IMG/VR virus record: IMGVR_UViG_2558860288_000004
Coordinates: 1 to 11,150 of that record
DNA: 11,150 bases
Strand: one strand, 5' to 3'
Source: a virus
Lineage: Duplodnaviria > Heunggongvirae > Uroviricota > Caudoviricetes
The notes beneath the pieces were generated by a model, which did no database searches, was not told the origin of the DNA, and was given only the letters and a program-made list of their open reading frames with translations. Position numbers and translations under genes: made by a program. This document shows positions 1 to 11,150 of the stretch, one piece after another (the stretch's first letter is position 1; each line of letters opens with the position of its first letter).

Positions 1-1203
1 GTGTTTCAGCAGGAAAAGCAGGCTCAGCGGCAGAAAGATTTTCAGCAGGCATACGCTAATGCTTATGCGTCTGGTGATCGCGGTGCTTTGCGTCAGTTGG
101 CTACTCAATATCCAGACCAGATTGAATCCGTTCGTAAAGGCATGGGATTCATTGATGAAGACCAGCGTAATTCTATCGGCACCTTAGCGGCTGGCGCACG
201 CCTTGCGTCATCGTCTCCAGAAGCAATGCAATCATGGCTGCAAAACAACGCCAAGGAACTGACTCGCGTCGGTGTTGACCCTAACAGCGTTGCTCAGATG
301 TATCAGCAGAACCCTTCAGGATTTGGTGAGTTTGTTGATCACCTTGGAATGGCTGCTCTTGGTCCGATTGATTACTTCAATGTTCAGGACAAGATGGCAG
401 GTCGTGAGATTGACCGAGGCAGGCTGGCAGAGACAATCCGCAGCAATCAGGCTGGCGAGGCGCTAACAGCACGAGGCCAGAACATCACGATGCGCGGTCA
501 GGACTTATCTGCTTCTACTGCGAGACGCGGGCAGGATTTGGCAATGCAGCGAGCGTCAACAAGAGGAACCGCTGGGAATGATGAGCGTACAGTTCAGTTA
601 TCAGATGGCAGAACTGTAACGGTAGGCGGGAAGCTTCATGGCGCTGGGGCTAATGCGTTCTACGAAGGCATCGACAACGAGGGGAATATGGTTCGCGTTC
701 CTGCCAGTTCAATCGCAGCGCCTGCAACATCGTCTGCATCAGCACAAAACTATGCCATGAAGAAGGATATCGACGCGATCGCAAATGCAGATGCTTCTGC
801 TCTCGATTTCATGACAGGAATGACCGGCGGTGCAGGTAATCCAGCAATTGGTGCTGATGTTCGCAGCAGATTAACAGGAAAAGAGCAGCGCCAGTTATAT
901 AACTCAGCACAACGGATTCAGGGCAGAATGCAGAATCAGGGTGTGGCGGCAGCAAGGGACATGGGTGCCAGTGGTATTAACACCGTTGCAGAAGCGAAGA
1001 TGTATTTTCAGGGGATGCCGCAGGTTGACTATTCAAGCCCGGAGGCTATGCAGCAGTCGATTCGTGAGATTCAGGAATACACCAACAATTACAATCAACA
1101 ATATAACGTTAATGTTGGTAAATCTCAGCGGCAGCAATCTCAACCTGCACAGGTATCACAGCCAGCAGCCAGCAGTAACTTTTCTTCACTATGGGGTGAT
1201 TAA
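1..1203 (+). CDS. Phage virion DNA-ejection (injection) protein, P22 gp20-like; 5'-partial, open to the window edge
   Basis: Reading frame is open from base 1 (the GTG at position 1 is not a demonstrated start) to TAA at 1201-1203. Ala/Gln/Gly-rich, no enzymatic motif. Sits immediately upstream of and translationally coupled (TAATG) to a 665-aa gp16-like protein, and upstream of mnt and tailspike, which matches the P22 order 7-20-16-immI-9. Product assignment is by position and composition, not by recognised motif. Confidence 0.5.
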
Positions 1204-3200
1204 TGGCTAAAGCATGGAAAGATGTTATCGCCTCTCCACAGTATCAGGCGTTAGCACCAGAACAAAAAGCGCAGGCTCAGGAGCAATACTTCAATGAAGT
1301 CGTGGCCCCGCAAGCCGGAGAAAATGCAGAGCAGGCTAAGCAAGCTTTCTATGCTGCCTATCCATTGCCATCTGTGCAGCCAGTGGAGACACAACAACCA
1401 GAAGCACAGCAACAACCACAGCAAACTGGATTTATGTCTGATCTTGGTGAAGCCGTGAAAGAAACTGGTCGCGGACTGGTGCAGGCTGGCGTAAACGTGG
1501 CAAACATACCTGCATCAGTTGCCGATGCTGTAACAAGCGCGGCGGCTTGGGCTGGCGGTAAACTCGGTATTGGCGATGGTACATATCAACCAGCGCCACG
1601 AGTAACAACGCAGGGGTTAGAGCAGGACTTTGGCCTTCAGCAAGGCGCGCTGACTCCACAAACGACAGAGGGCAGGGTATTTGCTGAAGCATTGCCTTAC
1701 CTCACTCCTGCTGGCGTTGAGAGAGCAGCAACACAGGCACCAACACTTGCTGGTCGAATTGCTCAGGGGGCAACACGACTTCTCGCAGAAAACGCAGTTG
1801 GATCACTTGCTGCAAATAGTGCGAAAGATGATGCGGAAGCACTCGCCACCGATTTAGGCGTTGGTGTGCTGGCTGGCGGTGCTATTAACGCTGCCGGACG
1901 TGGATTAGGTGCTGCTTATCGTGGCGTTCGTGGTGCTATTGCGCCAGAAGCGCAGCAGGCTATCAGATTTGCAGAGCGTGAAGGAGTTCCTCTGCACACC
2001 ACAGACCTGTTACAGCCTACTTCCCGCGTCGGGAAAATGGCGCAGACTACAGCAGAAAATATCCCCCTGGCTGGCACAAGCGGAATGAGAGCAACGCAAC
2101 AGGAAGCGAGAAGCCAGTTGGTGCAGAGATTTGCTGATAAATTCGGTGAGTATGATCCAGCTGTTGTTATTGACAGCCTTAAAGCGAAAACATCAGGAAT
2201 TCGTCGTGCCGCCGGTAATCGACTGGAGCAGGTTCAGAATGCTATGGCTGGAGTAAACATTCAGCCTGCGCGAGCAATTCAGCAGATTGATACAGAAATA
2301 TCTAATCTGCAGAAGCTTGGTAAGGTAGCTGATAACGAGACAATTTCAAAACTTCAGTCATATCGTGATGAGCTTGTTCGCAATGCTGGCCCTGATGGTC
2401 CGGTTAATCTGGATTTGAAGCAATTAAGCGATCTGCGCAGCCAGTTCAGAATGGACGTGAAGGGGGAGCGACCAGTGTTACCAAACCGTTCCGATGCCGC
2501 CATTCAACGTGTTTACAAGGCGATGACCGACGATATCAATGGTGCCATTGGTCAGAATCTTGGCAACGATACTCTCCGTAAATATCAGCAGGCCAATGCC
2601 GTCTACGCTGACGAAGCGGCGAAACTAAAGAATACCAGGCTGAAGAATGTTCTCATGAAAGGAGACCTGACGCCGGAAGTTGTCAACAACATGCTATTCA
2701 GCAAGAACAAATCGGAAATTAAGACGCTGTATAACTCAGTTGGTCGTGTTGGCAGGGCGCAAATGCGCAATGGCATCATTGGAAAGGCGATGGAGAAATC
2801 TGGCAGATCCCCTGACCAGTTCCTTCGGCAGCTTAACATCCTGCAAAACCAGACTGGCATCACATTTAAGGGGCAGGACGCTGCTTATCTGAAAGGATTA
2901 AAAAACTACCTGCAATCCACGCAGCAGGCTGCAAAAGCGGCAGTAACAACACCCACAGGGCAGCAAACTATCCCGTTCATTATTGGGTATGGGACGGCAA
3001 TGAACCCGGCGACAACTGGCGCAGCAGTAAGCTACGGACTTCTTACTCGCGCCTATGAGAGCGAGCCATTCAGAAATGCAATGCTCCGAATGGCAAACAC
3101 CCCACGCGGATCAACAGCGTTTGAGAAAGCCATGCAGCAGGCACAAAAGGCAATTAACGCTATGACGCAGGGGGCTAAGTCTGATGCGTTTTCAGAATAG
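1203..3200 (+). CDS. Phage virion DNA-ejection (injection) protein, P22 gp16-like
   Basis: 665-aa ORF; ATG at 1203 overlaps the upstream TAA by one base (TAATG) with GGGGTG upstream as a possible RBS. Ala/Gly/Gln-rich with a low-complexity stretch QQPEAQQQPQQ near the N-terminus. It is the last large structural gene before the mnt/tailspike region, as gp16 is in P22-like phages. Assignment rests on synteny and size. Confidence 0.55.
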   Translation: MAKAWKDVIASPQYQALAPEQKAQAQEQYFNEVVAPQAGENAEQAKQAFYAAYPLPSVQPVETQQPEAQQQPQQTGFMSDLGEAVKETGRGLVQAGVNVANIPASVADAVTSAAAWAGGKLGIGDGTYQPAPRVTTQGLEQDFGLQQGALTPQTTEGRVFAEALPYLTPAGVERAATQAPTLAGRIAQGATRLLAENAVGSLAANSAKDDAEALATDLGVGVLAGGAINAAGRGLGAAYRGVRGAIAPEAQQAIRFAEREGVPLHTTDLLQPTSRVGKMAQTTAENIPLAGTSGMRATQQEARSQLVQRFADKFGEYDPAVVIDSLKAKTSGIRRAAGNRLEQVQNAMAGVNIQPARAIQQIDTEISNLQKLGKVADNETISKLQSYRDELVRNAGPDGPVNLDLKQLSDLRSQFRMDVKGERPVLPNRSDAAIQRVYKAMTDDINGAIGQNLGNDTLRKYQQANAVYADEAAKLKNTRLKNVLMKGDLTPEVVNNMLFSKNKSEIKTLYNSVGRVGRAQMRNGIIGKAMEKSGRSPDQFLRQLNILQNQTGITFKGQDAAYLKGLKNYLQSTQQAAKAAVTTPTGQQTIPFIIGYGTAMNPATTGAAVSYGLLTRAYESEPFRNAMLRMANTPRGSTAFEKAMQQAQKAINAMTQGAKSDAFSE

Positions 3201-3289: not shown

Positions 3290-3550
3290 TTAGCTGCTGT
3301 CTTTTTTATATAGCTCCTTGAGCGTATCAAAGACAATTTTCTTAACCATATCAGATTGTTGTTCTGCCATACGCTCTGCATCGTCAATGTAAACAGATGC
3401 AGAGCTTTGTTTAGCCAATGATTCTTCAATCGCTGCAATTATCTCTGAGTTCAGCGACCTGTTATTCATCTTCGCACGCTGCTTAATTTTCGCGTGGAGT
3501 TCATGCGGAAGTCTCAAGTGAAACTGCGCCTCGTCGTATTTGCTGTACAT
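3290..3550 (-). CDS. mnt: Mnt-like ribbon-helix-helix transcriptional repressor (Arc/MetJ superfamily)
   Basis: Translation ...FHLRLPHELHAKIKQRAKMNNRSLNSEIIAAIEESLAK...YIDDAERMAEQQSDMVKKIVFDTLKELYKKDSS aligns along its length with P22 Mnt as I recall it (FNFRMPMEVREKLKFRAEANGRSMNSELLQIV...NDAERLADEQSELVKKMVFDTLKDLYKK). I chose the ATG at 3550 (MYSKYDEAQF..., 86 aa), which matches Mnt length; the ORF track extends the frame to 3583. Stop TAA at 3290-3292. Confidence 0.8.
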   Translation of the reverse strand: MYSKYDEAQFHLRLPHELHAKIKQRAKMNNRSLNSEIIAAIEESLAKQSSASVYIDDAERMAEQQSDMVKKIVFDTLKELYKKDSS

Positions 3551-3671
3551 CCTTGATGCCTCACCAGTTGGGTGGAATGGCATCGTAACCTACTGGATAA
3601 ATACTCAATAGTACCATTTCGGTATGCAATCACATCATGGTTGCATCATATCATTCGTCTGGAGCAATGAA
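3551..3671. promoter_or_regulatory. Divergent control region between mnt (minus strand) and tailspike (plus strand); holds the tailspike RBS and a short inverted repeat ATGCAA-N11-TTGCAT (3624-3646)
   Basis: 121-bp AT-rich intergenic region between divergent starts. GGAG at 3661-3664 lies 7 nt upstream of the tailspike ATG (3672). ATGCAA at 3624-3629 and its reverse complement TTGCAT at 3641-3646 form a 6-bp inverted repeat. No convincing sigma70 -35/-10 pair could be fixed by eye. Confidence 0.3.
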
Positions 3672-5828
3672 ATGTCAGATATCACCGCAAATGTTGTGGT
3701 CAGCATGCCTTCGCAACTCTTCACCATGGCTCATTCTTTTAAAGCCGTAGCCAATGGCAAAATTTATATCGGTAAAATTGACACTGACCCGGTAAATCCT
3801 GAAAACCAGATTCAGGTTTATGTGGAGAACGAAGACGGTTCTCACGTTCCTGTTTCGCAACCAATCATCATTAATGCGGCTGGTTACCCGGTATATAACG
3901 GACAGATTGCCAAGTTCGTAACTGTGCAAGGCCATTCGATGGCTGTTTATGATGCATACGGTGTGCAGCAGTTCTATTTTCCTAATGTGCTGAAGTATGA
4001 CCCGGATCAGTTTTCTGCAGAATGGCTTGCCAAGATGTCTGCGCCTGATTCTTATGCATTATTTGGTACATTCTCATCAATAGCAGATCTACGAGCATTT
4101 ACTGCATACTCATCAGTTAAGGAAAATGGAAGAGTCTATGTTGATTCTTATCACCTTGGAGCTGGTTATGGCGGAGGATATTTCCGCTGGAATTCAACTA
4201 GCACTGATACTGATGACGGTGGCTATACCATTAACCCAACTGGCAATACTGGAACAGGACGCTGGAAGCGAGAGATATCCTCTGCGTATGTCGCAAGGAC
4301 GGTGAGTCCGTTGGAGTTTGGGGCAAAAATTAACGATAGTACTTTCGACTGCGCGCCAGCTATCAATGCGGCTATTTTATATTTGAATCCTTATCTTGAT
4401 TCCTCATATGATTCTCATCAGGGTGGAGATATTGTGTTGCCAGCAGGGCAGTTTTATATTAATGACACTATATACGGCTCTCCCAATGTCAGGGTGCTGG
4501 GAATTGGCGGCACTCCAGGGTTCAGATATTCTAGGTCTGGGTGTTCTGTTATTGTCGCAATGCCCACAATGGATCTCATGAAAATTATGTATGATACCGC
4601 CCCGTGGTTGACAGACGGCACATCCAGATACACTAATACAAACGAGATGGTTTACGGCAGAACGGAAAGTCAGGGATACTATGGGACCTACATTGAGAAC
4701 ATAGTTTTTGTTGGAAATGCAGATCAACAGTGCGGAGTACGTATCTGGCGAGTTCCATGCTCCACTCTCAAAGGTGTTGCAGTCTACTCCTGTAAAGTAA
4801 GTTTCTGGGTAAATGGTTCGTGGGATGTGATGCTTGATAATTGCTTCTCATATGGCGCGAAGTACGCCACAATTTTGCCTTATCAAATTACATCGCTTCG
4901 CATAGTAGGCGGCTATTATACAGGAAATACTGCACAACTTTATTCTATGGGGACTGAACAGTGGTTTCATCGAGCGATAGATGAAACTAACAAGCCAAAC
5001 ATTGCTTATGTAACTACTTTCATGTATGCATATAACAGTTTTGATATAAATCTGTATGGCGTAACAATAGAAGGGTACAACAGAGAGTTTGCTCTTTTTT
5101 ATTGCGGCAATGTTAATATGTTTGGTGGGTATACAGAATGGATTGGAGTACCTGCAAGCGAGACAGGGCATCGTGTTTTTGTGCATGGTGTTGCCTCAGA
5201 GTTTTATTCAACAGGGACATACTTTAATCACGACATTAAAGATCTGGCGGTGCAGTCAGGGAATGTTTTTGACACTACTTCAGGAGAATACCTCCCATCT
5301 GAAAGATCACGAGTGATAATTGAAAATCCAAGAGTGGTAACAAAATTCCAGAATCTTACTAAAGATTTAGGATATGGCTCCTACAATATTGTCATAAAAA
5401 ACCAACACCCTATCACAGATAGCTTATCGACTACACTTTCAGCGCAGAGGCTTTTTACAGTTCAATTTGTTGGATTGCTAGACCAGTATACAATGCGAAC
5501 TCCTGCTGTAACTGCAAATGGTACAGTGAGCTTTAGTATCCAGATTGGAAATATTGCAGATGGAGGTGAGTATAGCGTTAGGCTTTTGATGAGAAACACC
5601 GCATCCACTGTACAGCAGGATTTAAGATTTACAGTGTTGGTAGGAACAACAACAACTGTTACTGGCTACCAGGGACGCTCGAAGGCTGGGACCACATTAA
5701 TACCAGCACCCACAGCAACATTCACTGGTAGCACATTAACTCTTACTTTCACAGGTAATTCAGGTTATTATTCATTCTTCAGAATGAAGTGCGTTCCTGT
5801 AGAAGATCAACCTATTTATACCTATTGA
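3672..5828 (+). CDS. Phage tailspike protein: P22 gp9-like N-terminal head-binding domain fused to a beta-helix-type receptor-binding (probable O-antigen depolymerase) body of unknown specificity
   Basis: From the ATG at 3672 (preceded by GGAG) the protein begins [59 protein letters not shown]...[15 protein letters not shown]...[10 protein letters not shown], a close match to the P22 gp9 head-binding domain. The remaining roughly 600 aa are Gly/Asn/Tyr/Ser/Thr-rich, as in right-handed beta-helix tailspike bodies, with a Thr-rich C-terminal segment. The 16 codons upstream in the ORF track (from 3624) are probably not translated. Stop TGA at 5826-5828. Confidence 0.9.
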
Positions 5829-5850
5829 TGGATTTTAGGCCGGGAAACCC

Positions 5851-5880
5851 CTGCCAATAGACTTTATTGGCAGGATTTTT
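5851..5880 (+). terminator. Rho-independent terminator hairpin downstream of the tailspike, shared with the convergent gtrC-like gene
   Basis: Perfect 9-bp stem CTGCCAATA (5851-5859) / TATTGGCAG (5865-5873) with a 5-nt loop, followed by GGATTTTTTAT on the plus strand. The stop codon of the minus-strand gtrC-like gene (TAA, 5864-5866) lies inside the hairpin. Confidence 0.6.
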
Positions 5881-7318
5881 TATCAAAATCAACAATCAAA
5901 ACGCTATCCTTGATATAGGAATTTAGCCATTGCCCCTGAAAGGATAGGTTACCTTCACATTTATGAGAAATGTAATTTTTAGCCTTGTTTGCTGGCATGT
6001 ATGTATTCTTTATCCCATTAAATGACATGTACGCACTTCCCCAATACCAGTTCCAGAAGTAATCTGTGACTGAATAGTTTATCAAAGGAAAGTTTAATGC
6101 TGCATTTTTTACAGCTTCGGATCTTGGTGCTGTGCCGGTAAACACAATGCTAACATTATCACTACCAGCGTCGCGAATGGATTGCATAATTTCAGAAAGA
6201 ACTACTTTATTTATCCTTTCCTGAGCCTTCAAAGCATTTCCGTATGCATACATTAAAATCATAGAATACAATACGGGTATTAATGTAATTGATGTTACGT
6301 ATCTATGTTCTTTAAAGCAATAATATAGCAATGTACTCATGAGGACATAAAAAACTCCAACCGACATGTATAAGTGAACTCCTCCCAATGGGTTGGCGAG
6401 AACCAGCAATGCCCCCATAGTCATTGGCATAGCGATTGCTGTTGCGAGTATCGCTCCAGTTATAACGTTAAATACTTTCCAGTTTAGGCCTTTACATTTA
6501 ACGTATTTGTAACTCAGAAACGCCGTCATAATAATGCAAGCTAAAGCTGACAGGAGTAATAATTCACCACCGATAACCCTGTAAAAATTTGTAGAAGCAA
6601 AATCGTAATACTTTAAGCTGTTATTCTTTAGTGCACCAAATATATCATTTGATATTCTTGGGTGATTAGATGAATAATGCCCGCTAAAAGTTATGGGTAA
6701 TATGAATTTCACGTATATCACACCACCTACTAAAACCTGCATTATACGTAATGCAACCCTTTTAAGTATTAACTGCGGGTCAGTAAATCTGGCCATGTTA
6801 ACTATTACTTCACATATTAATAAAATCGCAACGACATTAATGACTGCCTGATAAGTGCCAAGCACTATCACTACAAATGCGGTGCCTATTATTAATTCAT
6901 GAGCCAGTCTTTTGCACTTAATTGCAAAGAGAGCAAATGCAGATGCAATGGAGAAACTGAAAGTTAAAACATCAAACCGATAAGAGAACATTGATATAAT
7001 AGCTGGATTCGCCATGAATGCCAGAGGTATAATAAAGCTCCATTTTCCCCCATCAAGAAACCTCTTTCTGTAACATGCAAAAGATATTGCAAGCAGCACA
7101 GAAGCAAGAATGATTGGTAGAGGTGCAAGATCGACGATTCTGGAGCTAAGATTGAGAACTGACATTACTATATCAGCTACAGGCCTCCCGTCCACACCCC
7201 ATTTAGTATAACCAACAGTCGTTCGCCCAATATCATCAACATAAAATTGATTTGCTAGGATAATTGGCAATATAAATATAAAAATAACATACGAGTAACG
7301 TTTTGAGTTGTTAATCAT
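5864..7318 (-). CDS. Serotype/type-specific O-antigen glucosyltransferase of the Gtr family (GtrC/Gtr-type-like), polytopic inner-membrane protein
   Basis: 484-aa strongly hydrophobic multi-span protein lying directly after gtrA and gtrB; its start overlaps the gtrB stop (ATGATTAA). Position, size and membrane character match the third, type-specific gene of gtr clusters. It is markedly AT-rich compared with the ejection-protein genes. I do not recognise which Gtr type it is. Confidence 0.65.
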
Positions 7319-8237
7319 TTTTATTCTTACCCTTTAAAATATATCTTGGACGCTGTTTAACCTCGATATAAATCCTTCCGATGTATTCACCAAGTACCCC
7401 TATACCGATCAACTGAATCCCGCCCAAGAAAAGTATCGATACCAGCAGGGATGGATAACCTCTAACCGGGTTTCCAAACGCCAGAGTGTCCAGAATCATC
7501 CATGCGCCATATGTAAATGCTAAGCCAGCGACGAGAAGGCCGATGTAAGTCCACATACGTAGCGGAAAAGTCGAGAAGCTCGTAATTCCCTCAAGAGCAA
7601 GATTCCACAACTTCCATCCGTTGAACTTGGTACTGCCAGCAACACGTTCTGCGCGGGCATAATCAACGATATCAGTGCGACCACCAACCCAACTCAAAAC
7701 ACCCTTCATGAAAAGGTTGCGCTCAGGCATGAGCTTAATGTTTTCTACCACCTCGCGAGACATTAGCCTGAAATCTCCAACATTTTCCTCGATCTGCGGG
7801 TTGCTGATTTTGTTATGCAGCTTATAGAACCACTCGGCGGTTTTCCTCTTCAGTCTGCCATCCGTTGAGCGGTCAGATCGTTTAGCAAGCACCATATCAG
7901 CACCTGCCTGCCACTTTTCAATAAGATGAGGAATAACCTCAATCGGGTCTTGCAGGTCAACATCAATTGGGATTATAGCATCCCCAGTTGCATGGTCTAA
8001 CCCTGCAAACAATGCTGGTTCTTTACCAAAGTTGCGTGTAAATGACAGCGGAACAACTAGAGGATCTGAAACAGCCAGAGCATTAATAATTGACTCCGTA
8101 GCGTCTTTGCTGCCGTCATTTATGAAAACAATTTCCACTTCATATGACTTCAATTCTTCGAATTCACGTACCGTTTTATAAAAAATTGGTATCGCTTCTT
8201 CTTCATTGAAGACAGGAACGACCAGAGATATCTTCAT
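7311..8237 (-). CDS. gtrB: Bactoprenol (undecaprenyl-phosphate) glucosyltransferase GtrB, GT2 family
   Basis: 308 aa beginning [26 protein letters not shown]..., the typical GT-A N-terminus, with a DxD-type motif ([10 protein letters not shown]) and C-terminal transmembrane helices. Start ATG overlaps the gtrA stop (ATGA). Matches my recollection of GtrB/YfdH. Confidence 0.9.
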
Positions 8238-8596
8238 TTCGCATCCCTAAAGACAATGAACTTTGAATAGACGAAACCGCACACCAGGCTGATGGCGGAG
8301 AAGGTGACAAGAGTGACAATTGGAGGAAGTGAACATCTATCAGCAGCCCATCCAACAGTAGCACTCAGTGTTCCCATGAACCCGACATATAACATGTAGC
8401 GCATCGTTGTAGTTGATGCTTTGAATGTGAATTTTGCATTCGCGAAGAAGCTAAAACTCACAGCCACAACAAAACCTGCGAAGTTTGCCAGAGCCTGATT
8501 GGTATGCGCGGCATAGATACATACACCAAAAACCACCCAGTGTATAAGGGTGTTCAGCACGCCAATAGAGGTGTACTTTGCAAATAGTTTTAACAT
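8234..8596 (-). CDS. gtrA: GtrA family flippase for bactoprenol-linked glucose (4-TM small membrane protein)
   Basis: 120 aa, [31 protein letters not shown]..., the characteristic GtrA size and sequence; first gene of the gtr operon, immediately downstream of int on the same strand. Confidence 0.9.
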
Positions 8597-8690
8597 TTCT
8601 TCTATCAGCTAATAATCAAAGGCATGAAGTCTATCATCCAAGTCTCAATCGATCGATACTTGCTGTGGTTGATGAGACAACACTGAGACA

Positions 8691-8724
8691 CACAAAGCTT
8701 TGCACTGGATTGCAAGGCTTTGTG
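8691..8724 (-). promoter_or_regulatory. Long imperfect inverted repeat between the int stop and the gtrA start: candidate int terminator hairpin and/or gtr operator
   Basis: CACAAAGCTTTGCAC (8691-8705) and TTGCAAGGCTTTGTG (8710-8724) can pair as a roughly 14-bp stem with one mismatch and a short loop. The first arm itself contains the perfect palindrome CAAAGCTTTG (8693-8702). It lies about 25 nt downstream of the int stop and about 95-130 nt upstream of the gtrA ATG. No clean U-tract follows on the minus strand. Confidence 0.35.
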
Positions 8725-8748
8725 CTATCCGATGGTGTTTAAGTTTCC

Positions 8749-9906
8749 TCACTCCACCTTTTCATCAATCCAGTCCGCCCACCACTGCATCATTTCTCTG
8801 CGCTTATCGAGATACTGAGCATGGTTGTAAATTCCACGTACAGATCCGCCGTTGGCATGTGCCAGTTGCACTTCAATAGCATCAGCAGGCCATTCGTGCT
8901 CGTTCATAATCGTGCTGAATTCATGCCTGAATCCGTGACCGCTTTCCAGACCTTCATAGCCGATTTGTTTGATCACAAGCAATACCGCGTTCTCGCAGAT
9001 TGGCTTCTTCTTATCGTTGCGCCCGGCAAAAACAAACTCTGAGACTGGTTTGGTGATTGAGCTTAGCGTAGTGAGAAGTTCAACTACCTGGTCTGACATA
9101 GGAACCACATGAATTTTGCGTCCCTTCATCACATTGGCGTCGATGGTGATAATCCTGTTTTCAAAATCGACGTTCTTCCATAGCATGGAACGAAGCTCTT
9201 TTGTCCTGAGGGCTGTGTAGCGTAAAACTTTGGTCGCAATGAGCGATACGATGCTTCCTGAAAATGTTGCCAGTGCTTTGTTAAATGCCGGGATCTGGTC
9301 TGCAGGAAGAAACGGGAAGTTTTTCTTGCGGTATCCCTTCATGGCGTCAGCAAGGTCAGGTGCCGGGTTATATTTAGCCCTACCAGTGACAATAGCGTAA
9401 CGGAAAACCTCGCCGCATCTTCTGCGGGCTTTATTTGCTCGCTCCATTGCACCGCGATCTTCAAATCTGCGGATTACTTCCAGCAGTTGCATCGGCTCAA
9501 TATCCTGAATTTCAAGGCCGCCGATGATAGGTAAAATGTCGTCATCAAACATTTTTGCAAGTTCAGTCGCATAGCCTACTGACCAGACTTGCTTCTTGTG
9601 CTCGTACCATTCCTTGTAAATCGCACTAAAGGAATTGTTGTTAGACGAGGCCTTTTTCGCTTTTACCGGATCGATGCCAACCGAGATGTCTTTCCTCGCA
9701 GTCCATGCTTTATCCCTTGCCTCCTGCAAAGTCATAAGCGGATATTTTCCGACGGTCAGGATTTTCTCCTTACCGTCAATCTTGTAGCGAAGCTGCCAGA
9801 CCTTTTTCCCTGATACAGGGACATAAAGGTACAGGCCATTACCATCGAGAAGGCGGTATGGTTTTTCTTTCGGCTTTGCTGCTTCAATCTGCTTAACGGT
9901 GAGCAT
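8749..9906 (-). CDS. intS: Tyrosine site-specific recombinase (phage integrase, P4-like family), argW-associated
   Basis: N-terminus from the ATG at 9906, MLTVKQIEAAKPKEKPYRLLDGNGLYLYVPVSGKKVWQLRYKIDGKEK, is the canonical P4-family arm-binding start. C-terminal catalytic region has RTKELRSM ... HGFRHEFST ... VRGIYNHAQY (Arg/His-x-x-Arg/Tyr signature). The resulting 385 aa, adjacent to argW, matches my recollection of E. coli IntS. The ORF track's longer frame (GTG at 9942) adds 12 residues I consider unlikely. Stop TGA at 8749-8751. Confidence 0.85.
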   Translation of the reverse strand: MLTVKQIEAAKPKEKPYRLLDGNGLYLYVPVSGKKVWQLRYKIDGKEKILTVGKYPLMTLQEARDKAWTARKDISVGIDPVKAKKASSNNNSFSAIYKEWYEHKKQVWSVGYATELAKMFDDDILPIIGGLEIQDIEPMQLLEVIRRFEDRGAMERANKARRRCGEVFRYAIVTGRAKYNPAPDLADAMKGYRKKNFPFLPADQIPAFNKALATFSGSIVSLIATKVLRYTALRTKELRSMLWKNVDFENRIITIDANVMKGRKIHVVPMSDQVVELLTTLSSITKPVSEFVFAGRNDKKKPICENAVLLVIKQIGYEGLESGHGFRHEFSTIMNEHEWPADAIEVQLAHANGGSVRGIYNHAQYLDKRREMMQWWADWIDEKVE

Positions 9907-10002
9907 GGGTAAAAATCCGGTGGGTAAAATTATTTTATCCACTTTTTACCCGTCATGGAGTGCGGCTGTCAACGATCTGACGCGAACCATGACGAACCGT
10001 GA
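9907..10002. repeat. Cluster of short repeats in the int upstream region: GGGTAAAA x2 direct (9907-9914, 9922-9929) plus one inverted copy TTTTACCC (9945-9952), and tandem CGAACC(A/G)TGA x2 (9983-10002); candidate integrase arm-type or accessory-factor sites
   Basis: Read directly from the sequence. They lie between the int start and the tRNA 3' end, where P-arm binding sites are expected in tRNA-integrating phages. No functional evidence. Confidence 0.3.
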
Positions 10003-10067
10003 ATATACGGAAGGCTTGATATTCAGGGGATTTTGCGGACTGGTACGGATGGGAGCGAACTGATAAA

Positions 10068-10100
10068 TGGTGTCCCCTGCAGGAATCGAACCTGCAATTA
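10068..10100. other. Probable prophage attachment-site core (attL or attR) overlapping the 3' part of argW; exact extent not determinable from this window
   Basis: Inference from architecture: the integrase gene abuts the 3' end of the tRNA, as is usual for tRNA-integrating phages, where the phage supplies the 3' segment of the tRNA. The second copy of the core must lie outside the window, so the boundaries cannot be set. Confidence 0.35.
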
Positions 10101-10142
10101 GCCCTTAGGAGGGGCTCGTTATATCCATTTAACTAAGAGGAC
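10068..10142 (-). tRNA. argW: tRNA-Arg (anticodon CCU)
   Basis: Reverse complement of 10068-10142 reads GTCCTCTTAGTTAAATGGATATAACGAGCCCCTCCTAAGGGCTAATTGCAGGTTCGATTCCTGCAGGGGACACCA. It has a 7-bp acceptor stem (GTCCTCT/AGGGGAC), anticodon stem AGCCC/GGGCT with loop CTCCTAA (anticodon CCT), T-loop GGTTCGATTCC and an encoded CCA 3' end. Matches my recollection of E. coli argW. Confidence 0.95.
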
Positions 10143-10153
10143 AATGCGGCATG

Positions 10154-10182
10154 AGTATACCCGCTAATGGAGTGCGGGGTAA
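10154..10182 (-). promoter_or_regulatory. Candidate sigma70 promoter for argW (minus strand): -35 TTACCC, 17-nt spacer, -10 TATACT
   Basis: On the minus strand TATACT (plus 10154-10159) lies about 11 nt upstream of the mature tRNA 5' end, and TTACCC (plus 10177-10182) is 17 nt further upstream. The -10 is a 5/6 match to consensus; the -35 is weak. Confidence 0.35.
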
Positions 10183-10217
10183 GTACGCTGCCGCTCGATT
10201 GCTTAAACCCTCGCCAT

Positions 10218-11150
10218 TTATGCCGGGTTTTTATAATTTTTCTTAATGTTTTCCGCACGTTCTGCTTTTTGGCGTGCTTCTGCTTTACGCTTATTGCTCA
10301 TGTCGTTACGAATCTGTGCATGACTCATTAACGCGAAGATAAAGGTGCCGCCGCAGATGTTCCCCGCTAAAGTAGGTAGTGCGAAGGGCCAGATGAAATC
10401 GCTCCAGTGCAGCGTACCGTTAAACACCAGATAGAGGATTTCAACAGAACCGACCACGATATGGGTGGTGTCACCCAGGGCAATAAGCCAGGTCATCAAT
10501 ATAATCACCACAATCTTTGCCGCACCCGCTGCAGGAAACATCCAAACCATAGTGGCGATCAGCCAGCCGGAAATGATCGCGTTGGCAAACATCTCGCTGG
10601 GGGTGTTCTTCATCACATCCATGCCGATTTTGACAAATGCATCGCGAGTTTCTTCATTGAAGATAGGCATATATTCAAATGCCCACGCCGCAATACCTGT
10701 CCCGAGAATATTACCCAGCAGCACGACGCCCCATAACCGTATAAGTAAGCCGACGTTGCTCATTGTCGGTTTTTGCATGACGGGTAGTACCGCAGTCACG
10801 GTATTTTCGGTAAATAATTGCTGGCGGGCCATAATGACGATAATAAAACCAAAGGTATAACCGAGATTCTCCAGCAAGAAGCTGCCCGGCACACCTTCCA
10901 GTTCGACTTGAAATATCCCTTTTGCCAGTAACGAAGCGCCCATCGACAGACCCGCCGCAATGGCTGACCACAGTAGCGCCATTGCGTCGCGTTCCAGCTC
11001 TTTTTCACCATCCTGGCGGATATGCTCATGAATTGCCATCGCCCGGGAGGGGAGTCGGTCTTCATCTATTTCTATTTTTTTGCCGCGCTCTTTTTCTTCG
11101 CTCTCAACTTCAATTTCGTCGCTGTGTTGATCAATTTTGTCGTTGTCCAT
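10218..11150 (-). CDS. yfdC: Host inner-membrane protein of the formate/nitrite transporter (FNT) family, YfdC-like
   Basis: 310-aa ORF whose ATG is the last three bases of the window (11148-11150) and whose stop is TAA at 10218-10220. It has an acidic N-terminal tail and multiple hydrophobic helices, and sits next to argW on the side away from the prophage, matching my recollection of the E. coli K-12 yfdC-argW arrangement. Composition is chromosome-like, not AT-rich like the gtrC-like gene. Confidence 0.75.
   Translation of the reverse strand: MDNDKIDQHSDEIEVESEEKERGKKIEIDEDRLPSRAMAIHEHIRQDGEKELERDAMALLWSAIAAGLSMGASLLAKGIFQVELEGVPGSFLLENLGYTFGFIIVIMARQQLFTENTVTAVLPVMQKPTMSNVGLLIRLWGVVLLGNILGTGIAAWAFEYMPIFNEETRDAFVKIGMDVMKNTPSEMFANAIISGWLIATMVWMFPAAGAAKIVVIILMTWLIALGDTTHIVVGSVEILYLVFNGTLHWSDFIWPFALPTLAGNICGGTFIFALMSHAQIRNDMSNKRKAEARQKAERAENIKKNYKNPA

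Follow-up and report, generated by a model that had tools for sequence, protein, structure and literature searches.

The 3' end of argW carries the attL junction of an Sf6-like prophage element that is most likely a locked-in remnant

The IntS/TorI-type prophages form a family that includes KplE1/CPS-53, Sf6, HK620, Kapi1 and HF4s. The free temperate Lederbergviruses known to use argW are Sf6, HK620, HF4s, IME10, CUS-3 and Kapi1. In KplE1 of E. coli K-12, the published attachment core is 16 nt long, the intS promoter overlaps attL, an arrangement that makes intS negatively autoregulated; the motifs in K-12 attL and their roles were shown experimentally (PMC2951348). In Kapi1, int adjoins yfdC, xis adjoins dsdC and the tRNA is kept intact, and the 17-bp att site contains the 16-nt core (PMC8787464). 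The neighboring dsd genes lie in a hypervariable region: in EHEC and other strains, dsdC and the 5' part of dsdX have been lost beside argW, with a csc-type replacement (PMC4366372), and the hypervariability of the argW-dsd region is also credited to Moritz & Welch (2006). The argW IntS/TorI module, the promoter-in-attL layout and the variability of argW-dsd are all published already, and the locus described here leaves current understanding unchanged.

We analysed a stretch of 11,150 nt from an IMG/VR virus record (IMGVR_UViG_2558860288_000004), hereafter the window. An earlier note had described positions 8749–10142 as a prophage-chromosome junction consisting of a 385-aa P4-family integrase next to tRNA-Arg(CCU), with a host FNT-family membrane protein gene on the other side of the tRNA. 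ARAGORN, Rfam, Pfam and a BLASTP comparison with P4 Int bore this out: all of the described parts are present and the observation is confirmed (Table 1). We consider it highly likely that 8749–10142 is the attL junction, at the argW 3' end, of an IntS/TorI-type P22-like prophage that most likely survives as a locked-in remnant of ~10.2 kb.

Table 1 Coordinates of the features in the window, with the evidence for each
Feature	Position	Strand	Evidence or remark
P22 gp20-like ejection protein gene, 3' portion	1-1203	+	Pfam Inj_translocase
P22 gp16-like DNA ejection protein, 665 aa	1203-3200	+	PF26808 Phage_P22_gp16 (precomputed hits)
mnt-like repressor (immI region), 86 aa as publicly called	3290-3550	-	Pfam Arc, Repressor_Mnt
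Tailspike, 718 aa from publicly called ATG	3672-5828	+	Pfam Head_binding, E 1e-65
gtrC-type serotype-specific glucosyltransferase, 484 aa, 36.6% GC	5864-7318	-	Pfam PF14264 GtrII
gtrB, GT2 bactoprenol glucosyltransferase, 308 aa	7311-8237	-	Pfam PF00535; 91.8% identical to K-12 YfdH
gtrA, bactoprenol-glucose flippase, 120 aa	8234-8596	-	Pfam PF04138; 96.7% identical to K-12 YfdG
intS, P4-family tyrosine integrase, 385 aa	8749-9906	-	Pfam, BLASTP, K-12 IntS identity
attL P' arm and predicted intS promoter	9907-10066	-	Motif positions, K-12 attL counterpart
Inverted arm-type copies	9922-9929, 9907-9914		
IntS arm-type repeats, GG(G/A)TAAAA	9944-9951, 9933-9940		
Predicted -10 box, TAAAAA	9943-9948		
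Predicted -35 box, TTGACA	9967-9972		
TorI (RDF) pentamers, GTTCG/GATCG/GTCCG	10056-10060, 10036-10040, 9993-9997, 9983-9987, 9973-9977		
attL core, CTGCAGGGGACACCAT	10067-10082	-	Crossover region common to attB, attP, attL and attR
argW, tRNA-Arg(CCU), intact	10068-10142	-	ARAGORN, Rfam, K-12 identity
yfdC, host FNT-family inner-membrane protein, 310 aa	10218-11150	-	Pfam PF01226 (Form_Nir_trans), E 6.8e-49

ARAGORN found a single tRNA in the window, a tRNA-Arg with anticodon CCT. Rfam confirmed it at 63.4 bits and detected nothing else in the window, and its sequence is identical to K-12 argW. The ORF beyond it is the chromosomal flank; its counterparts in K-12 and BUCT2930 carry the yfdC annotation. 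Being 100% K-12-like, the host flank assigns the source to E. coli sensu lato. The longest ORF for the integrase (8749–9942, minus strand) encodes 397 aa from a GTG, and the K-12-type ATG at 9906 gives the 385-aa protein. Counted from this ATG, 161 nt separate the gene from the tRNA 3' end; the distance of about 125 bp given in the earlier note holds for the GTG-extended ORF alone. The integrase gene and the tRNA lie on one strand with the start of the integrase facing the tRNA, so that int is read away from it.

The integrase shares 99.5% of its amino acids with K-12 IntS, 99.2% with HF4s Int and 98.4% with Sf6 Int. It contains the Arm-DNA-bind_3 (PF13356), central Phage_int_M (PF22022) and Phage_integrase (PF00589) domains, and aligned end to end with P4 Int at 35% identity over 402 aa (BLASTP, E 2e-77). 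The catalytic residues R234, K261, H324, R327, H350 and Y360 are all present; each is identical in P4 Int except K261, which pairs with a conserved Lys. By domains, homology and catalytic residues, the protein belongs to the P4-family tyrosine integrases.

The exact boundary between phage and host is the 16-nt argW attachment core. It occurs in the window exactly once (shuffled sequences give an expectation of 0), and no second copy was found there with up to two mismatches allowed. The same 16 nt flank K-12 CPS-53 at both ends, and likewise the BUCT2930 prophage; the position of the core in the window is that of the annotated Sf6 attP core. Three comparisons converge on this point. First, the host side of the core is identical to K-12 at 1068 of 1068 nt and the phage side is 91–98% identical per 200 nt, with the step down from 100% falling exactly at the core. 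Second, the phage side matches the attP arm of the free phages Sf6 and HF4s, and every free-phage match stops at window position 10082. Third, the empty site, with yfdC, argW and dsdC contiguous, is present in 911 of 5426 complete E. coli genomes; the best 12 of these each matched as one single piece of 1000/1000 nt. In empty sites the core is followed by dsdC-side DNA and not by the int-tRNA spacer, and among those examined there was no case of 9907–10066 lying beside argW without a mobile element. For comparison, intS together with the spacer is present in 1861 of the 5426 genomes.

The core, the empty sites and the free-phage attP sequences thus agree with the earlier proposal that the junction at argW is one physical end of the element. 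The empty sites also answer the refutation test proposed with it, which asked whether the spacer might be native sequence in prophage-free strains: the result favours the junction. In the mechanism we propose, recombination by IntS between the phage attP and attB would have taken place at the common core CTGCAGGGGACACCAT. The last 15 nt of argW (10068–10082) lie inside the core and are phage-supplied after integration, and the phage copy would have restored them, keeping argW intact. Since int and xis flank attP, int comes to lie at the argW end on integration, transcribed away from the tRNA.

Between intS and the core, the arm (9907–10066) hardly differs from K-12 attL or from the attP arms of the free phages Sf6 and HF4s. 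As sequence matches, all five TorI pentamers, the TTGACA and TAAAAA boxes and the four arm-type (TAAA) repeats are present at conserved positions. By this identity with the experimentally studied K-12 site, a sigma-70 intS promoter is predicted within the attL arm, among the TorI and IntS arm-type sites. A generic promoter scan of 8500–10300 yielded fewer sites than shuffled sequences did; its one hit was weak and did not correspond to the published PintS. The published -35/-10 pair was not picked because its 18-nt spacer and TAAAAA -10 box break the rule used by the scan.

What kind of phage lies behind the junction? The ejection proteins, the head-binding tailspike and the immI (mnt) region place its origin among the P22-like phages (Lederbergvirus, Sf6/HF4s-like). 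The gp16-like gene is syntenic with Sf6 gene 13 and with the gp16 homologue of HF4s; our local copy of Pfam missed the protein, and its family assignment comes from precomputed hits. NCBIfam offered no specific name for the GtrC, tailspike or gp16 proteins. The longest ORFs for the mnt-like protein and the tailspike extend beyond the public calls, to 3583 and from 3624, respectively. The tailspike combines a P22-type head-binding domain with a receptor-binding part that has no counterpart in sequenced phages: against phages, its C-terminal 602 aa gave matches at their N-terminal fringe only. A megablast search with 4000–7320 gave zero matches in the 5426 complete E. coli genomes.

The three gtr genes are overlapping ORFs (8596–5864, minus strand) that adjoin int and the att site as a gtrABC cluster. 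The gtrC-type protein showed no significant similarity to K-12 YfdI, 34% identity to BUCT2930 GtrC over ~200 aa and at most 27% identity to the GtrCs of 50,697 phage genomes, and no relative was found among GTDB species representatives. O-antigen glucosylation by gtrABC is a plausible remaining activity of the remnant.

These findings leave the question of how much of the phage is still there. The window lacks the terminase, portal, coat, lysis, replication, immunity C and xis genes, and so does not hold a complete Lederbergvirus genome between two att sites. With neither torI/xis nor a second core (attR), it contains half of the recombination module, attL and intS. The window itself begins at the GTG of a 400-aa call made solely for the truncated gp20, and both of its ends fall on gene starts.

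We turned to near relatives of the window, contigs that are 99.96–99.99% identical to it at the nucleotide level; none is 100% identical (1–3 SNPs). Contigs L005/L011, L012, L015 and L017 cover all 11150 nt without gaps, with 2–3 mismatches (99.97–99.98% identity). In the near-identical contigs, the phage identity stops 145 nt to the left of the window and continues, with a 2-nt overlap, in the interior of K-12 dsdX; the gp20-dsdX fusion is then followed by dsdA. This deletion joint is seen in those contigs and lies outside the window. In those that cover the full locus, the core occurs a single time over the locus and its 10-kb flanks. At the locus, torI, attR and dsdC are absent from the 99.97–99.98%-identical contigs and present in K-12, BUCT2930 and L009. 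The dsdA-dsdX'-gp20' layout was found in 24 of 24 contigs read that encode the exact gp16-like protein and in 24 of 24 that encode the exact tailspike; the two sets, drawn from 64 and 39 index blocks, have lineages in common and possibly some contigs too.

From these relatives we infer that the genome sampled in the window is most likely in the same remnant state. After integration, a later deletion with one endpoint at nt 41 of phage gene 20 and the other at nt 244 of host dsdX would have given the dsdX'-gp20' joint expected in this reading (...CCCCGGATATCGGCGGCG...). About three-quarters of the prophage would have been lost in this way, with all of its immunity, replication, lysis and head genes, xis (torI) and attR, and on the host side dsdC and the 5' end of dsdX. 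Left behind would be gp20', gp16, mnt, the tailspike, gtrCBA, intS and attL, an element of ~10.2 kb that would be unable to excise. The earlier note had suggested a more complete P22-like phage at this site. Its P22-like origin stands; its completeness is probably wrong, with gene 20 cut and fused to dsdX in every near-identical contig. The note had also proposed searching for a duplicated tRNA 3' segment. Because attR has been lost in the near-identical contigs, no second segment is expected and that check should fail, so that rejecting the junction for want of a duplicate would wrongly discard a real one.

One alternative, which we regard as quite unlikely, is that a complete P22-like prophage of ~40 kb, potentially inducible, has its attL at this junction and its attR beside dsdC. 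The gp16-like, tailspike, gtrABC and int genes are all intact ORFs in the window, the dsdX-gp20 joint falls outside it, and complete members of the family do exist at argW, such as that of BUCT2930 with 40.4 kb between its cores. The same GtrC protein is also encoded by prophages that look fuller over the stretches read, L006–L008 and L021 (a 40.8-kb IMG/VR contig). However, these fuller prophages are just 95–98% identical to the window (about 95% in DNA for L007 and L021) and differ from it in gp20, immI or the tailspike. By contrast, gp20 is fused to dsdX in every contig that is at least 99.96% identical, those with the full locus are single-core, the 24/24 counts in both sets show the remnant layout, and the beginning of the window coincides with the initiation codon called for the truncated gp20.

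It is very improbable that the missing genes were moved elsewhere in the genome by a rearrangement, so that a functional phage could still be assembled or rescued. What was read of the contigs extends 10 kb to either side of the locus, which leaves some room for this. At the joint, however, the 3' part of dsdX, contiguous with dsdA, meets the 3' part of gene 20 across a 2-nt microhomology, the topology of a simple deletion; after an inversion one would expect phage early genes or the 5' part of dsdX there instead. Sister lineages have also decayed stepwise, L016/L018 being without gtrA and part of gtrB and L017 having a split gtrB, as fits an inert remnant. Finally, the idea that there is no junction at all, and that int and the spacer are ancestral E. 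coli chromosomal sequence, might draw on the commonness of intS (some match in 3012 of 5426 genomes) and the near-identity of the spacer across strains, but it has practically no chance, being already refuted by the 911 genomes that run from the argW core straight into dsdC-side sequence and by the identical layout of the attP arm in the plaque-forming free phages Sf6 and HF4s, as well as opposed by the drop in K-12 identity exactly at the core.

We also considered whether attR, xis and dsdC might have been lost from the remnant through recurrent deletion directed to one site rather than random decay. An unrelated Lederbergvirus remnant, at argW in the complete genome 20AR0300, has dsdX fused at the identical host nucleotide (...CCCCGGATA), with its phage-side breakpoint in gp4 and not gp20. 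A shared gp20 breakpoint was considered for contig L022 and rejected, as its breakpoint differs. A differently truncated dsdX breaks at another position (H119) and is possibly of the csc type. The dsdX'-gp20' joint itself was held by none of the 5426 complete E. coli genomes (megablast). Directed deletion seems to us unlikely. If it did occur, a dsdX hot spot or a specific mechanism would repeatedly lock seroconverting remnants into argW and abolish regulated D-serine catabolism, and the locked remnant here would carry a gtrC/tailspike specificity pair that has no like in any sequenced phage.

The analysis fixes the boundary of the element at 10067–10082 and identifies it as an attL-only Sf6-like phage remnant, non-excisable if its state is that of its relatives. 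Prophage callers would probably score such an element as incomplete, and tests for att duplication would miss it. Induction of dsdXA has probably been lost in the strain because dsdC would be gone and dsdX truncated, and the strain may carry O-antigen glucosylation.

The closest described element is KplE1/CPS-53 of K-12. The two share the argW site, the 16-nt core, a nearly identical IntS, the attL arm with PintS, TorI and arm-type sites, and a remnant size of ~10.2 kb. They also share the order argW-intS-gtrA-gtrB-gtrC-type; the int-gtrA-gtrB-gtrS arrangement mentioned in the earlier note is indeed the argW-intS-yfdG-yfdH-yfdI of K-12. Unlike the near-identical relatives of the window, which have lost torI and attR as well as dsdC and the 5' end of dsdX, K-12 keeps torI and attR and still excises (PMC2951348). 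The K-12 remnant retains early-region genes and tail-fibre fragments, whereas the element in the window retains the late-operon gp20' and gp16, mnt and the tailspike, and its gtrC-type gene is unrelated to yfdI.

Among the free phages, HF4s, Sf6 and IME10 are 93–96% identical to the window at the nucleotide level over the ejection genes and the int-attP arm. The free argW Lederbergviruses have the attP core at the same position, with attP between int and xis. HF4s is arranged as tailspike, gtrC-B-A, int, attP, xis, and from tailspike to int this is also the order in the window; Sf6 differs in having oac in place of gtrABC. These phages are complete at 38–40 kb, whereas here the quarter from gp20' to int alone appears to survive, and the tailspike receptor-binding part and GtrC of the window differ from those of all the argW phages listed above. 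P4 resembles the locus more distantly, in its integrase family, an int that is read away from attP, arm repeats between int and core, and a tRNA 3' end as target. Its target is leuX, however, its att site, core and arm sequences are different, and it is a satellite rather than a P22-like phage. At csc-type loci, the truncated dsdX adjoins the csc sucrose genes; in the relatives of the window it adjoins phage gene 20 instead.

The earlier note placed a prophage–chromosome junction at argW, with a tRNA-Arg(CCU) flanked on one side by an integrase and on the other by a host FNT-type gene. ARAGORN, Rfam and Pfam confirmed this layout: the tRNA is identical to K-12 argW at every base, the 5′ end of int faces it, and the yfdC ORF lies on the opposite side of the tRNA from the integrase.

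Genes and attL sequence elements of the window
Feature	Position	Strand	Remarks
gp20-like gene	window left end		3′ 1203 nt only
gp16-like ejection protein	1203–3200	+	
mnt	3290–3550 (to 3583 in longer version)	-	mnt-like repressor
Tailspike with P22 head-binding domain	3672–5828	+	Pfam
gtrC, GtrII-type	5864–7318	-	Pfam
gtrB	7311–8237	-	Pfam
gtrA	8234–8596	-	Pfam
Integrase (K-12 IntS start)	8749–9906	-	ATG at 9906, 385 aa
Integrase ORF, longest version	8749–9942	-	397 aa, GTG start; downstream of tRNA, same strand
GG(G/A)TAAAA arm-type repeats	9907–9951		four: two direct, two inverted
-10 TAAAAA	9943–48		sequence match to K-12 attL
-35 TTGACA	9967–72		sequence match to K-12 attL
TorI pentamers	10056–60, 10036–40, 9993–97, 9983–87, 9973–77		sequence match to K-12 attL
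tRNA-Arg, anticodon CCT (argW)	10068–10142	-	ARAGORN, sole tRNA gene in window; Rfam agrees
yfdC, 310-aa ORF	10218–11150	-	formate/nitrite-transporter Pfam domain; annotated yfdC in E. coli

Could the spacer between int and the tRNA be native chromosomal sequence, an outcome that the earlier note named as refuting the junction? We built an empty-site query from K-12 by joining the yfdC end, argW and the sequence after attR. The predicted empty site is present as one place in 911 of the 5426 E. coli genomes searched, all complete, and the best 12 of these 911 are single pieces with 1000/1000 identical positions, annotated yfdC, tRNA-Arg and dsdC; int plus spacer is held, at 80% or more, in 1861 genomes of the same set. 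Identity to K-12 steps at the core, from 1068/1068 on the host side to 91–98% per 200 nt on the phage side. Finally, the spacer (9907–10066) matches the attP P′ arm of the free phages Sf6 and HF4s. Native origin of the spacer was rejected on these grounds: the 8749–10142 region is a real phage/host junction.

The junction can be placed exactly. Written in the direction of the tRNA, the sequence on the int side is ...GGTTCGATTC CTGCAGGGGACACCAT TTATCAGTTCGC... in the window, in K-12 and in BUCT2930 (an E. coli strain with an argW prophage); in K-12 and BUCT2930 a second CTGCAGGGGACACCAT, followed by CCTTGTG..., adjoins dsdC. The 16-nt core lies at 10067–10082 and occurs once in the window (0 expected from shuffles). 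Matches to free phages (HF4s, IME10, Sf6, Louie, Dewey and N7) all end at 10082, an end point that agrees with the attP core annotated in the Sf6 record. The core is that published for KplE1 (PMC2951348), and it is contained in the 17-bp att site established by experiment for phage Kapi1. Kapi1 inserts between yfdC and dsdC, its int adjoining yfdC and its xis adjoining dsdC, and keeps the tRNA intact (PMC8787464).

The integrase carries arm-binding, central and catalytic Pfam domains, matches P4 Int over its whole length (35% identity, E 2e-77) and has R234, K261, H324, R327, H350 and Y360, all of which supports its labeling as P4-family. Its identity to K-12 IntS is 99.5% (2/385 residues differ); HF4s Int follows with 99.2% and Sf6 Int with 98.4%. 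The earlier note combined a length of 385 aa with a spacing of about 125 bp from the tRNA, figures that come from two different start codons: the length stands with the ATG at 9906, but from there the tRNA 3′ end is 161 nt away. Public gene calls all start at this ATG and give 385 aa, and the GTG of the 397-aa ORF is almost certainly not a real start. The stretch added by the GTG start (9907–9942) overlaps the -10 box and IntS arm-type repeats.

By sequence comparison, the spacer carries every TorI, arm-type and promoter element mapped in K-12 attL by Panis et al. (PMC2951348). In the related phages Sf6, HF4s and Kapi1, attP lies between int and xis. If the window's element works like the K-12 system, with which it shares this identity, IntS would recombine attP with the 3′ end of argW. 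The phage core would restore the tRNA, and int would stay at attL, its own promoter lying within the recombination region. That promoter would be repressed by IntS and TorI, a regulation known from the literature.

No complete E. coli genome among the 5426 searched holds 80% or more of the window, whose exact proteins were then looked up in public assemblies. Contigs from GCA_016114115.1 (L005/L011), Logan ERR12083861 (L012), SRR7495371 (L015) and ENA ERZ27237904 (L017) differ from it by 2–3 substitutions and 0 gaps over all 11,150 nt. In these contigs the match to HF4s breaks off at nt 42 of gene 20, 145 nt to the left of where the window starts (L011 8654–8655). Past this joint they match the interior of K-12 dsdX at 100% identity, from 244 nt into that gene and with 2 nt shared with the phage part, and the host DNA runs on to dsdA, emrY, emrK and evgAS. 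They lack everything from gp7 back (head, lysis, replication and immunity genes included), together with torI/xis, attR, dsdC and the dsdX 5′ end. The dsdX′–gene 20 layout was found in 24/24 contigs read with the exact 665-aa gp16-like protein and 24/24 read with the exact 718-aa tailspike, two sets that have lineages, and possibly contigs, in common. Both window ends fall at gene starts, the left one being the GTG of a 400-aa call seen only for the truncated gene 20. Judged from these close relatives, the window's genome very probably carries a ~10.2-kb remnant unable to excise; the main caveat is that the joint lies outside the window. The earlier note's interpretation is thus supported in part: the junction stands, but the "more complete P22-like phage" is not supported, gene 20 being cut and fused to dsdX in the near-identical contigs. 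Fuller prophages with the same GtrC (L006–L008 and the 40.8-kb IMG/VR contig L021) are only 95–98% identical to the window.

Since the near-identical contigs hold a single core copy, a second argW 3′ core, which the earlier note proposed to locate, is expected to be missing here as well. Absence of a duplicated tRNA 3′ segment, which the earlier note took as evidence against integration, would thus wrongly dismiss a true junction; the valid tests are empty-site alignment and comparison with free-phage attP, and each of them speaks for the junction.

Related elements have also been reduced. Two derivatives of closely related prophages, produced by independent deletions and 98.7–99.0% identical to the window, illustrate how prophages of this type have decayed repeatedly at argW: L009 keeps torI, attR and dsdC and lacks most structural genes, and L010 has gp14 joined to the anti-RecBCD region. 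Within the window's own remnant lineage, L016 and L018 lack window 7693–8711, a ~1-kb deletion that removes gtrA and the 5′ part of gtrB, and in L017 (10381–11307) gtrB is broken into two ORFs; maintenance of the gtr operon is therefore not uniform. In L018, a Logan contig (15396–17942), the window match ends at 10090, inside argW and 8 nt past the core, and is followed by Phage_portal and DUF4062 genes in place of yfdC; a second element at argW or a chimeric assembly may explain this part. The same host dsdX nucleotide (...CCCCGGATA) stands at the joint of the window's lineage and of an argW remnant of E. coli 20AR0300 that is unrelated to it. In 20AR0300 the fusion partner of dsdX is the final 114 nt of gp4 (L022 16450–16456), with ~7 nt of microhomology. 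The two joints thus have different phage breakpoints (gene 20 nt 42 versus gp4), and the shared dsdX breakpoint could reflect chance, a hot spot or a shared older event.

Megablast of window 4000–7320, covering the receptor-binding part of the tailspike (4020–5828) and gtrC (5864–7318), gave 0 matches in the 5426 complete E. coli genomes. Among 50,697 phage genomes no GtrC exceeds 27% identity to that of the window, and the C-terminal 602 aa of the tailspike have no real homologue among phages; the exact proteins of this module are present in dozens of public assemblies. Tailspike and gtrC may form an uncharacterised O-antigen glucosylation/tailspike specificity pair. The Dam/OxyR phase-variation switch described for gtr operons of P22 type relies on several GATC sites. 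The int–gtrA spacer (8597–8748) has a single GATC, at 8651, and shows no evident arrangement of that kind. Of the immI region, only the mnt-like repressor (3290–3583, - strand) survives in the window. Between gp16 and the tailspike, relatives such as L006 and 20AR0300 carry arc, ant and a Rap1a/Tai-type immunity gene, and L007 an HNH endonuclease gene.

Nucleotide identity to the Lederbergviruses HF4s, Sf6 and IME10 is 93–96% over the ejection genes and int arm, and the order tailspike/gtrC-B-A/int/attP/xis of free HF4s is like that of the window; a P22-like origin of the element is therefore supported. The junction itself is textbook and the argW system already known; the argW–dsd region has been documented as a hot spot, and other lineages show dsdC/dsdX truncations (PMC8787464, PMC4366372). 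The closest system is the defective prophage KplE1/CPS-53 of K-12, which has the site, core, integrase and attL arm in common with the window's element, as well as the gene order int-gtrA-gtrB. KplE1, however, has kept torI and attR and is still able to excise (PMC2951348), whereas the window's element appears to have lost both; it keeps late phage genes, and KplE1 early ones.
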